Below are positions 13,233 through 15,431 of a stretch of 64,000 nucleotides of DNA, piece by piece. How positions within the stretch are numbered: position 1 is the stretch's first letter; the number at the start of each line of letters is the position of its first letter. The stretch is from a bacterium (lineage in GTDB: Bacteria > Bacillota > Clostridia > TANB77 > RGIG9151), in contig CAVHFU010000003.1 of the NCBI GenBank assembly GCA_963635575.1, forward strand, positions 3,539 through 67,538, in the 5' to 3' direction. Made by a program: the position numbers and the translations under genes. The notes under the pieces are model-generated. The model was not told the origin of the DNA. It saw only the letters and a program-made list of their open reading frames with translations, and did not search any database.

Positions 13233-13316
13233 TTATCTAAATTGTTTTAATTCATTACATTCATTCTTATAATACTGCGAATATTTTACTAAAATCTCTT
13301 CTAATGCTATTTTCAT
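13233..13316 (-). pseudogene. Truncated duplicate of 5' end of Nudix-SAHH gene ([27 protein letters not shown])
   Basis: Same RBS+ATG+25 codons as real gene start at 15211, then diverges and stops after 2 codons at repeat boundary. Confidence 0.6.
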
Positions 13317-13537
13317 TTTGGCCTCCTTTCCTATTCTTAAAGTAATACAACTCACTCAAAATCTAATTAATCCTAAAGTGTATTTATTTTTAGCAAAAAG
13401 AGAACCAAAGGTTCTCTTTTTGTTTATCATTTGTAATTACTTTTCGTCAGCGATTGCAGCTTGTGCAGCAGCAAGTCTAGCGATAGGTACTCTGTATGGT
13501 GAACAAGATACATAAGTTAATCCTAACTTGTGACAGT
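13237..13537. repeat. Direct repeat copy 1 (~298 bp, ~99% identical to 15132-15431)
   Basis: Read directly: contains copy of ppdK last ~33 codons, terminator hairpin aaaaagagaacc aaa ggttctcttttt, promoter region, GGAGG RBS and first 25 codons of Nudix-SAHH gene; differs by 1 indel + 1 substitution (a/g at 13533/15428). Explains identical ORFs 13318..13515 and 15213..15410. Confidence 0.9.
13395..13421. terminator. Duplicated copy of ppdK terminator, here positioned to terminate the Nudix-SAHH gene
   Basis: agagaacc aaa ggttctct stem flanked by A5/T5. Confidence 0.6.
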
Positions 13538-13540
13538 TTT

Positions 13541-15211
13541 TTAATAATTCCCATTTTCAAAAATCTCTATCCATGTCTTAGCAATGCTTTTTTTATGCTC
13601 CATATCAACTTCTGTAATTTTAGAGGTATTACAAATTTTTTCATCTATCGCTAGTTGAGCTGCTACTAACATCTCACTTCTCACTAAATGTATAAAATTA
13701 TACATAACTGCATTATGAATAAAATTTACAGCATTTCCTTTTCTAATAAGGAAAAAACTATTACACTCATTTTCGTATTTATAGATGTGTGATTGAACTT
13801 GGGTAACCTTATATTCAGATTCCAAATACTTCGAATCTATTTCATCATCAGAAGAAGTAACAGAAAATATATAAGCTCCCTTTTTTACTTTTCTAAAATC
13901 AATTATATCTAAAGAATGATTACCAGTTGATAAAAACAAAATATCAGAATTTTCGATAATATATTTTTTCTTTCTTATGCTACACATTCTATTACAAGCT
14001 TCTATTTGCTTTATTGGATTTATATCATAAACTAAAGGTTTAACTCCCTTTTGTAGCAAATGCTTACCTATTGACGAACCAATTTTACCAAACCCTATTA
14101 TTCCGCACGTCTTGTATTCTACTAAAGTACCAACTTCTCTTAATAATGTTTCCGCTGAAAAAACTACAGACTCACCAACCAAATAATCTTCATTTTCCTT
14201 TAATATACTCCTTGCCACTGATATTATTTTCACATTAGTTCTTGCATTTTCATACTTTTGATACCCATTTTCGGTATCCTCTATTATACACTTTATGTTT
14301 TTACACAATTCACTTTTTTTAGTAACAAATTCATAAAAATATCCGCCAATATCAAAAATAATAATTTTTTTCTTGCCTTTTTTCATAATTTCTTCAACAA
14401 ACTTTGAATTAATAACATCATCCCGTTTAATCATCTTTATTGGGAATTTGTTTTTTATTTTGTCTAGTACACTCTCGTCTATAGAATTAGGTTTGGGAAT
14501 TAATAATTCAATAGGGCATACGTAATTTAAACTTTCTAAATATTCTACGCAATCCGGAATTATATGGCTTACAACTATACTCCTATATTCCCTTAGATCT
14601 ATGTTAAACTTCTCAATTATTTTATTATAATAACGAATAATTTTTTGTTCAGAATTTAATATGTTAAAAATTTTATTTATAACTCTTTCAAATTGGGGAT
14701 TTGTCCTTAATTCAGCAATATCTACCCATTTATAAGTATTAGACTCTGTATTATCTATTAAAATTTTAGAAGAATCTTCAACAATAAACAAATATCTAAA
14801 GTCATGGTGGTAATGTGGAGGCATATCTTTTTTGAAATTTTCAGGAATATAATGAGTATTTATGTCAAAAGGCACATTTTTATCGCAAAAAATATTTACG
14901 AGTTCCAGTTCTTTTAATTGGGTTTCTTCATAAATTTCTCTACGTGCTGTATCTAGCAAACTGTTATCATTTTCATCTACATGCCCACCTGGTTGTAAAA
15001 ATTTGTTTAATTTTTTATGTTCCAACAATAAGATTTTCTTGTCATTTCTAGAATAAATAAAACCACTAGCTGTTATATGACCTATTAGGTTACGAGGATT
15101 ATAGATATCACTACCATTTTTAATGAAATCCTCTAATTGTTTTAATTCATTACATTCATTCTTATAATACTGCGAATATTTTACTAAAATCTCTTCTAAT
15201 GCTATTTTCAT
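13541..15211 (-). CDS. Nudix hydrolase fused to divergent S-adenosyl-L-homocysteine hydrolase-like (AdoHcyase fold, NAD-binding) domain
   Basis: Start revised to ATG 15211 (GGAGG 5 nt upstream) rather than 15250. Nudix box [26 protein letters not shown]-terminal ~370 aa align to SAHH: [13 protein letters not shown]~[24 protein letters not shown]~[24 protein letters not shown]~[22 protein letters not shown]~[26 protein letters not shown]...[12 protein letters not shown]~NIFVTTTGCIDII...IVCNIGHFDVEID. Confidence 0.65.
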
Positions 15212-15431
15212 TTTGGCCTCCTTTCCTATTCTTAAAGTAATACAACTCACTCAAAATCTAATTAATCCTAAAGTGTATTTATTTTTAGCAAAAAGAGAAC
15301 CAAAGGTTCTCTTTTTGTTTATCATTTGTAATTACTTTTCGTCAGCGATTGCAGCTTGTGCAGCAGCAAGTCTAGCGATAGGTACTCTGTATGGTGAACA
15401 AGATACATAAGTTAATCCTAACTTGTGGCAG
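15132..15431. repeat. Direct repeat copy 2 (in native context: ppdK 3' end to start of Nudix-SAHH gene)
   Basis: See copy 1. Confidence 0.9.
15290..15316. terminator. ppdK terminator (bidirectional hairpin)
   Basis: aaaaagagaacc aaa ggttctcttttt, 8-bp stem, A/T runs both sides. Confidence 0.7.

Follow-up and report, generated by a model that had tools for sequence, protein, structure and literature searches.

A 297-nt perfect direct repeat around a Nudix and adenosylhomocysteinase-like fusion gene in a strain-specific island downstream of ppdK

RecA recombination at flanking direct repeats duplicates, amplifies or deletes the segment between them, as in antibiotic heteroresistance, unequal exchange giving the duplications and amplifications and intramolecular exchange the deletions (reviewed in PMC11721125). 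A different kind of small module, the cis-mobilisable elements (CIMEs) of streptococci, which are remnants of ICEs or IMEs that lack an integrase, measures 1.2–13 kb, carries cargo genes only, is flanked by att sites and sits at the 3' ends of fda, rpsI and rpmG (PMC7563491). Here we analyse a 64-kb stretch of a Clostridia genome (64,000 nt of contig CAVHFU010000003.1, assembly GCA_963635575.1; below, the window), in which a gene encoding a Nudix domain fused to an S-adenosylhomocysteine hydrolase (SAHH)-like domain follows ppdK, the gene for pyruvate, phosphate dikinase, and is bracketed by two copies of a direct repeat. The minus strand is the coding strand for all genes of this region, the features placed below lie on it unless stated otherwise, and coordinates are those of the window. 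The setting is a small accessory island in the variable ppdK-downstream region of an uncultured gut Clostridia species, and on balance we think it probable that the repeat is a scar of host homologous recombination in this strain-specific island, superimposed on an earlier doubling of the 3' end of ppdK, with no new mobile element involved.

As in direct-repeat amplifiable segments, the gene lies between long, perfect direct repeats. Searching positions 11000–18000 and then the whole window, and aligning the copies and their flanks pairwise, we found that 13240–13536 and 15135–15431 are 100% identical over 297 nt, in direct orientation and with a spacing of 1,895 bp, and enclose a segment of 1,598 nt. 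An earlier reading of this DNA made from the letters alone (the sequence-only reading) had placed the two segments correctly to within 3 nt and had put their identity at ~99%, near-perfect as we find but short of the actual figure. Extending the alignment to 301 nt brings in one mismatch (plus-strand A at 13537 versus G at 15432), so that the coding strand reads CTGT after the Nudix gene and CTGC in ppdK; at the other edge identity ends abruptly, at 13240/15135. In the scan of all 64 kb the pair stood alone among direct repeats of at least 40 nt at such identity, and a 35-nt piece of it occurred twice, with zero occurrences expected from shuffles. The repeat–segment–repeat layout that the earlier reading had described is real, the self-comparison of the whole window giving one long repeat family.

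Copy A (15135–15431) lies upstream, where its parts stand in their functional setting: the final 100 nt of ppdK, then a terminator, a ribosome-binding site and the opening 77 nt of the Nudix–SAHH-like gene. Copy B (13240–13536), downstream, starts 4 nt past the Nudix stop codon and has the junction with the lipoprotein region as its other end. The ppdK gene itself is intact (15332–17959; 875 aa; Pfam PPDK_N, PEP-utilizers and PEP-utilizers_C), and its last 33 codons lie inside copy A. The hairpin with T run that serves ppdK (15289–15317) resembles an intrinsic terminator, with an RNA fold of -16.8 kcal/mol (z = -4.95), and is unlike the native terminator of strains with an empty site; the identical hairpin in copy B (13394–13422) stands ~120 nt past the stop codon of the Nudix gene, in keeping with the earlier suggestion of a duplicated terminator for the inserted gene. 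Ahead of the Nudix gene each copy carries AAAGGAGGCC-AAA-ATG, with its GGAGG ribosome-binding site, and the 77 nt that follow amount to 25.7 codons of a 556-aa gene. Next to the intact gene, on its 3' side, this leaves the predicted 27-codon stump (13233–13316), made of the first 25 codons of the Nudix gene followed by F-R-stop. All parts that the sequence-only reading had listed for the repeat (the last ~33 codons of ppdK, the terminator hairpin, the GGAGG site and the first 25 Nudix codons) are present, save for an intergenic promoter: a simple consensus scan detected no sigma-70 promoter upstream of the Nudix gene within the repeat. A promoter-like TTTAGA-16 nt-TATAAT (13214–13241), a match to the consensus only, straddles the junction of copy B with the DNA downstream of it and lies upstream of the lipoprotein gene; we regard both this and the placing of the copy B terminator 3' of the gene as incidental.

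Comparison with five contigs of the same species (L047–L051, by BLASTN and alignment) showed that the DNA downstream of ppdK varies between strains. About 12 conspecific ppdK proteins at 99–100% amino-acid identity are found in the databases; in the five contigs the nucleotide identity of ppdK to that of the window is 98.3% (L049, L050 and L051), 96.0% (L047) or 95.2% (L048). In L047 and L049–L051, the ppdK stop codon is followed by a 45-nt native terminator (GCAACTATAATCTAGTTGC plus a T run) and then by DNA homologous to the window from position 12487 downwards, which is the upstream region of a gene for an SLH/VWA surface protein (7975–12303). Since these empty-site contigs run from the ppdK terminator straight into that DNA, window positions 12488–15330 are an insertion or replacement: a strain-specific, AT-rich island of 2,843 bp, absent from four of the five contigs, where 45 nt stand instead, and present as a remnant in the fifth, L048. 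It consists of the alternative terminator, the Nudix–SAHH-like gene, copy B and a lipoprotein-like gene with its own terminator (12533–13174; 213 aa with signal peptide and Cys, matching nothing in Pfam, NCBIfam or PADLOC), and has a GC content of 26.7%, against 38.7% in ppdK and 32.7% in the whole window. The empty-site contigs hold only the ~101-nt ppdK part of the repeat, without the terminator, the ribosome-binding site or the 5' end of the Nudix gene. A look at this region in relatives, which had been suggested from the sequence, thus finds the Nudix gene variably present among conspecific strains; the gene is also rare, with one other close allele (P0241) against the roughly 12 conspecific ppdK proteins. 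Within about 10 kb of the island we found neither an integrase nor a transposase and no inverted repeats at its ends, no recombinase domain in the island, the neighbouring window genes or the ppdK-downstream regions of L047–L051 (five other genomes sampled), and no relaxase or integrase in the island, the genes examined in the 64-kb window or the L048 island.

In these respects the locus resembles hot-spot islands whose contents are swapped by homologous recombination in their flanks: at least three contents follow ppdK among conspecifics, both junction alleles carry private sequence, the GC content is atypical and the neighbour is a hypervariable surface-protein gene. It is unlike them in its 1.16-unit repeat, an extra that a hot-spot model does not need. 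The surface protein (1,442 aa, with SLH, VWA and Listeria–Bacteroides-repeat domains) is 88–91% identical in conspecifics whose ppdK is 98.3% identical, and L047 has a different SLH gene (66%) at the surface locus, which is hypervariable. In L048, ~6 kb after ppdK and the Nudix remnant (10202–15500 of that contig) carry unrelated genes, among them a CxxxCxxC radical-SAM-like open reading frame (ORF), a pyridoxal phosphate-dependent decarboxylase, an aminotransferase and a phosphodiesterase, and this gene set is a third allelic content of the hot spot. We also considered whether the island had come from a donor resembling L048 along with adjoining ppdK sequence, and rejected this: in sliding counts of mismatches, the 3' end of ppdK contains no tract of L048 type.

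L048 also bears on the age of the ppdK-end duplication. Past its ppdK stop codon come a homologous terminator, a spacer with ribosome-binding site, the last 8 codons of the Nudix gene (EIFENGNY) with their stop, 6 nt, and then a second ppdK 3' end, whose first codon is the same as that of copy B in the window. This 27-nt gene remnant differs from the end of the window gene at four positions, all of them synonymous third positions, so the allele of the L048 lineage was functional for long before its internal deletion. The second ppdK end is a frameshifted mosaic, 80% identical overall to the first ppdK end of the same contig: its first ~58 nt are almost identical to that first end, including two single-nucleotide polymorphisms specific to L048, and its last ~50 nt are about 65–70% identical. 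Such a pattern is that of an old pseudogene fragment in which, to judge from the sequence, gene conversion has replaced one part with sequence of the functional copy. Because L048 shares the junction and has a decayed second end behind it, the arrangement of Nudix stop followed by ppdK end is old. In the window the corresponding junction is the CTGT at 13537–13540, at the same position as in L048 and with the CTGC at 15432–15435 in ppdK as its counterpart; it may be either a short imperfect microhomology or the remnant of an older second ppdK end. The sequence that follows the second end in L048 bears a weak resemblance to the native post-stop sequence of empty sites (TAAGAATATAAT versus TAAGAACTATAT), which slightly favours displacement of the native end by the insertion. 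The sequence-only reading had held that diverged repeats in related genomes would mark the layout as ancient rather than mobile; L048 shows such divergence for the ppdK part of the repeat, as the 80% mosaic.

We infer the following order of events from the repeat, the presence and absence of the island, the old junction common to the window and L048, the mosaic make-up of the second copy and the lack of a recombinase gene. With P for the ppdK body, r for its last ~101–106 nt (r1 and r2 for the two ppdK ends), T for terminator and ribosome-binding site, N for the gene, D for the lipoprotein region and R for the 297-nt repeat, the window reads P-r1-T-N-r-T-N(first 77 nt)-D, where the second r equals r1 but for one base at its left edge. 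Long ago, a core unit of 1,895 bp, comprising the last ~101–106 nt of ppdK, the terminator and the Nudix–SAHH-like gene, would have been placed between ppdK and a displaced second ppdK 3' end, giving P-r1-T-N-r2, a state that would persist in decayed form in L048. Its source may have been a single-crossover (Campbell-type) insertion at the ppdK 3' end or an equivalent duplicative event: a circle with a ppdK 3' fragment may have crossed in, or microhomology in the imperfect motif CTG(Y)CAC may have mediated a duplication. The most direct path from that state to the window would begin with an unequal crossover of r1 with r2 between sister chromosomes that duplicated the 1,895-bp unit, replacing r2 by r1-T-N5' and leaving a hybrid r2/r1 that retains the edge mismatch and is perfectly identical beyond it; the mismatch at 13537 indeed lies where an r2 leftover of such a crossover would sit. 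A subsequent deletion would have trimmed the second gene copy to 25 codons and fused codon 25 to the lipoprotein promoter region (D). Alternatively, the intact allele may have recombined with a stump allele P-r-T-N5'-D, or an excised circle may have re-integrated into that stump allele, which is the Campbell scenario of the sequence-only reading. All of these routes from the old state to the window would run on host homologous recombination alone, without an element-encoded recombinase. At present, RecA recombination between the 297-bp repeats would yield a 1,895-bp circle and a ppdK-R-lipoprotein chromosome, or else tandem arrays. The earlier suggestion that the gene can be excised and amplified is supported to the extent that 297 bp of perfect homology should be a good RecA substrate; unlike in described amplifiable segments, no deletion or amplification product (circle junction or tandem array) was observed among the retrieved contigs, and the repeats are composed of the ppdK 3' end, the terminator and the cargo 5' end, not of insertion sequences or rrn.

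Several points weigh against host recombination in the island as the origin of the repeat. At least two events are needed after the original insertion, and neither the intermediate with two full genes nor the ppdK-R-lipoprotein stump allele was seen in any of the contigs. The old junction is documented in one contig, L048, whose resemblance to the native post-stop sequence is weak. The window strain is closer to the empty-site strains than to L048, so the island must have been transferred between strains or lost repeatedly. Finally, the contiguity of gene body, copy B and lipoprotein gene is taken from the deposited assembly and from one break point in a de Bruijn graph. That break point is found in a Logan contig (L001, run SRR13434665), which is 100% identical to window positions 10578–13269 and starts exactly 30 nt into copy B. 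Logan assemblies use k = 31, and 30 nt is the k-1 overlap at a branch of a k = 31 de Bruijn graph; a start at such an overlap means that in the reads of SRR13434665 the repeat continues both into the gene body and into the lipoprotein region. Both continuations thus exist, which is independent but partial support, linkage on a single molecule being a separate matter. Exact-protein look-ups returned no record for the Nudix protein (with two start choices), P0001 or ppdK, and the lipoprotein alone gave a contig; a Logan unitig of the gene body, sought by way of guessed partial products of 540 and 541 aa, was not found in the collection, the Logan assembly of SRR13434665 being generally fragmented, and scans of JGI metagenomes for the junction of gene end with ppdK end and for the ppdK 3' end gave nothing, the species being absent from that collection.

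Repeats also flank the gene in its closest relatives elsewhere. A homologue with 78% amino-acid identity occurs in two Eubacteriales metagenome-assembled genomes (MAGs; contigs L002 and L011) between a gene with a CBM53 domain and an amidase/spoIIP operon, and is followed by a Spo0A-like response regulator. In L002, the gene and the response regulator stand between 64-nt direct repeats of 100% identity (522–585 and 3216–3279), and in L011, from a sister species, the repeats are 48 nt long and 96% identical (7853–7900 and 10528–10575); in both, a weaker, decayed similarity extends past them. The repeat copies within each genome are closer to each other than the orthologous copies are between genomes, so recombinational homogenisation of flanking repeats recurs around the Nudix–SAHH-like gene. 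Homogenisation of this conversion-like kind, here in L048 and L002, is a further likeness to direct-repeat amplifiable segments. A more distant gene, 58% identical, has been inserted on its own into the spc ribosomal-protein operon of gut Clostridia, with secY on one side and adk on the other (contigs L004–L009, for example L004:9835–11788), where near-identical 19-nt stretches of ribosome-binding site plus ATG, AAAAGGAG[C/A]TTTTATTATG, stand at both gene starts; at L021:7959–8624 the same site holds only a truncated remnant of 221 aa. When 11 family loci were set against 167 control genes, long flanking repeats occurred only in the window and in the L002/L011 lineage, and 6 of the 167 controls had flanking repeats of at least 32 nt. 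Bracketing by repeats as a property of the whole family is therefore rejected; it is recurrent in the closest clade, and a dedicated insertion mechanism has a low probability.

Among other origins for the layout, the sequence-only reading had proposed a recent Campbell integration, in which a 1,895-bp circle (R plus gene body), either released by excision in a sibling cell or acquired through DNA uptake, would have crossed into a chromosome carrying the stump allele ppdK-R-lipoprotein. The geometry and perfect identity of the repeats suit it, an insert between two direct copies being just what the exact 297-nt repeat around 1,598 nt provides, as do a unit that is exactly one gene with its upstream region, the patchy occurrence of the gene among strains and the Logan branch at the copy B/lipoprotein junction, which a mixture of stump and intact alleles would also produce. 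As in Campbell insertion-duplication, moreover, ppdK stays intact as the insert provides a copy of its 3' end, and the old ~106-nt duplication fits. One repeat copy should then stand in the empty site, which holds for that older ppdK-end duplication (L048) but fails for the 297-nt R: empty sites have no terminator, ribosome-binding site or Nudix 5' end, that is, none of the non-ppdK two-thirds of R, so the full R cannot have been the entry homology into a naive chromosome and must be secondary. Integration of this kind also presupposes both a stump allele and a repeat-bracketed or tandem array to supply the circle, leaving the origin of these unexplained; no stump allele and no circle junction turned up, the insert has no backbone of a vector or replicon, and the junction of gene stop and ppdK end is old. 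Taken together, the unit has the right shape and a recent integration is nonetheless unlikely. The recent simple tandem duplication that had been offered beside it would leave two full units, whereas we found 1.16 (297/1,895 nt) and a second novel junction, from Nudix codon 25 to the region upstream of the lipoprotein gene, so that tandem duplication requires an additional deletion; in its simple form it fails. An assembly chimera, joining two co-existing alleles (one intact, its second ppdK end partly diverged, and one a stump deletion) by walking a shared repeat node twice, would produce a de Bruijn graph identical to that of the layout seen here, and the source is evidently a MAG with relatives that are all MAGs or metagenome contigs, the region varies between strains, and identity begins directly after the junction mismatch. 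Yet even so the junction of gene end and ppdK 3' end must occur in real molecules, and it is independently present in L048; crossing a 297-bp node twice would require pair or coverage support; the P0241 allele lies on a 1,930-bp contig that breaks off near either end of the gene, just as flanking repeats in that genome would make it do; and the 64 kb contain no other long repeat or oddity. We consider such a chimera quite unlikely.

A decayed site-specific element would instead treat the two ppdK 3' ends as attL and attR of a CIME-like module that no longer has an integrase but that a related element could mobilise in cis or trans. Such elements classically enter a housekeeping gene at its 3' end and bring along a substitute for that end together with a terminator of their own, cargo-only CIMEs are documented in streptococci (PMC7563491), and the locus shares with them a small cargo-only module, a conserved and highly expressed gene as target, gene-end-derived repeats (in the window as in L048, the cargo is followed by another ppdK 3' end) and variation between strains. 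Neither integrase nor relaxase, however, was found in the island, the window genes examined or the L048 island, and no integrase-bearing relative turned up in the island's neighbours or in L047–L051; viral contigs gave no match and plasmids only partial SAHH-domain matches; the repeats are far longer than typical att cores, and att sites would not account for the 77 nt of cargo gene that they include; and the closest homologue is flanked by a different repeat sequence at a different locus. We think an origin of this kind very improbable. A transposon or insertion sequence fares no better, as there is no transposase, there are no inverted repeats at the ends, and the 297-nt repeat includes cargo-gene sequence. 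The repeats could also be footprints of an insertion mechanism tied to the Nudix–SAHH-like gene that makes long target-site duplications, through staggered-break fill-in or template switching, with the ppdK-end duplication, the 64-nt repeat of L002 and the 19-nt ribosome-binding-site repeat at secY/adk as its traces. Three insertion contexts, each with local sequence doubled around the gene, and the low background of 6 in 167 control genes from the same loci speak for it; 8 of the 11 family loci have no flanking repeat above background, the 19-nt match is a ribosome-binding site plus ATG and possibly due to chance, R includes cargo sequence and hence is not a target-site duplication, and no candidate enzyme is in sight, so that the chance of such a mechanism is very small indeed. 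For the ppdK locus, a recent insertion with a long target-site duplication is rejected outright, since R holds 77 nt of the cargo gene and the N-terminus is conserved in homologues from other contexts. A broader version, in which an integrase-less cassette driven by recombination inserts time and again beside highly expressed housekeeping genes (ppdK in the window, the secY/adk pair in a second lineage and the promoter region of an operon in another, the gene being otherwise often pseudogenised), duplicates 19–106 nt of target and has its repeats kept identical by conversion as a reversible switch for loss and amplification, is very doubtful. We thus continue to prefer host homologous recombination acting on an old ppdK-end duplication.

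The bracketed gene itself (13541–15211, 556 aa) is intact and retains all residues that are invariant in its family, whose function is uncharacterised. Pfam assigns NUDIX at the N-terminus (9e-13) and AdoHcyase_NAD, the NAD-binding domain of adenosylhomocysteinase, at the C-terminus (3e-12). PF00293 scores 48.8 bits against a cut-off of 21.1 over residues 47–170, and with the REIYEE core present the protein belongs to the Nudix hydrolase superfamily. NCBIfam adenosylhomocysteinase models reach at most 65 bits against cut-offs of 275–498, below what a true SAHH would score, and alignment to SAHH is limited to residues ~240–500 of the protein and positions ~70–345 of SAHH; with a match that is both sub-threshold and partial, 'SAHH-like domain' is the proper label, rather than adenosylhomocysteinase. 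Hundreds of full-length homologues with the same two domains occur in Clostridia, Bacteroidota, Planctomycetota, Saccharibacteria and others, and their annotations go no further than 'NUDIX domain-containing protein' or 'adenosylhomocysteinase'. The closest allele, P0241, is identical at 554 of 556 residues, and the next relative is at 78%. Carriage by phages or plasmids is rejected, as no relative was found among IMG/VR viral contigs and a plasmid search gave only distant homologues with the SAHH domain alone and no full Nudix–SAHH relative; so is membership of a defence system, PADLOC models matching neither this protein nor the lipoprotein. A literature search on Nudix–SAHH fusions found nothing relevant.

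Members of the family are often broken: in L012 (8001–9638) the gene is split into two ORFs, in L025 (8001–8567) only the Nudix domain is left, the P0002 cluster includes truncated variants of 190 aa, and the broken members comprise the proteins P0243, P0245, P0246 and P0250. Breakage this frequent hints that the gene is accessory and can be dispensed with. A protein with the SAHH-like domain only, 31–34% identical to residues ~200–555, is encoded on a Lactiplantibacillus plantarum plasmid (L052; NZ_CP017376.1, 8794–11986) and on many other plasmids of that species, in a cassette of three genes for an MFS transporter, a phosphohydrolase and the 'SAH hydrolase', and this cassette hints at a role in handling nucleosides or nucleotide analogues.

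Elsewhere in the window, a c-di-GMP-I riboswitch (6965–7048, plus strand; Rfam, 87.7 bits) lies upstream of an ORF (7100–7930) with weak similarity to SprT-like proteins or zinc metallopeptidases, and a 6S RNA gene (87 bits) is found at 45106–45297. The runner-up among the repeats of the window, 44 nt at 89% identity (45065–45108 and 63334–63377, 18 kb apart), has the first of its copies right beside this 6S RNA gene.

If gene body, copy B and lipoprotein gene stand on one molecule, an accessory enzyme gene is genetically unstable here and can be deleted or amplified by host recombination, and such instability could make a population of this gut anaerobe heterogeneous with no enzyme of a mobile element at work. 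Set against other strains, the locus records how the 3' end of a housekeeping gene can be duplicated and then repeatedly homogenised around an inserted gene, and it flags the region downstream of ppdK as a hot spot at the strain level. The wider value of this is modest, because the mechanisms are textbook ones. The stronger lead is the uncharacterised Nudix plus SAHH-like family itself, whose genes are found inserted singly at highly conserved sites, secY/adk being one, and often decay.

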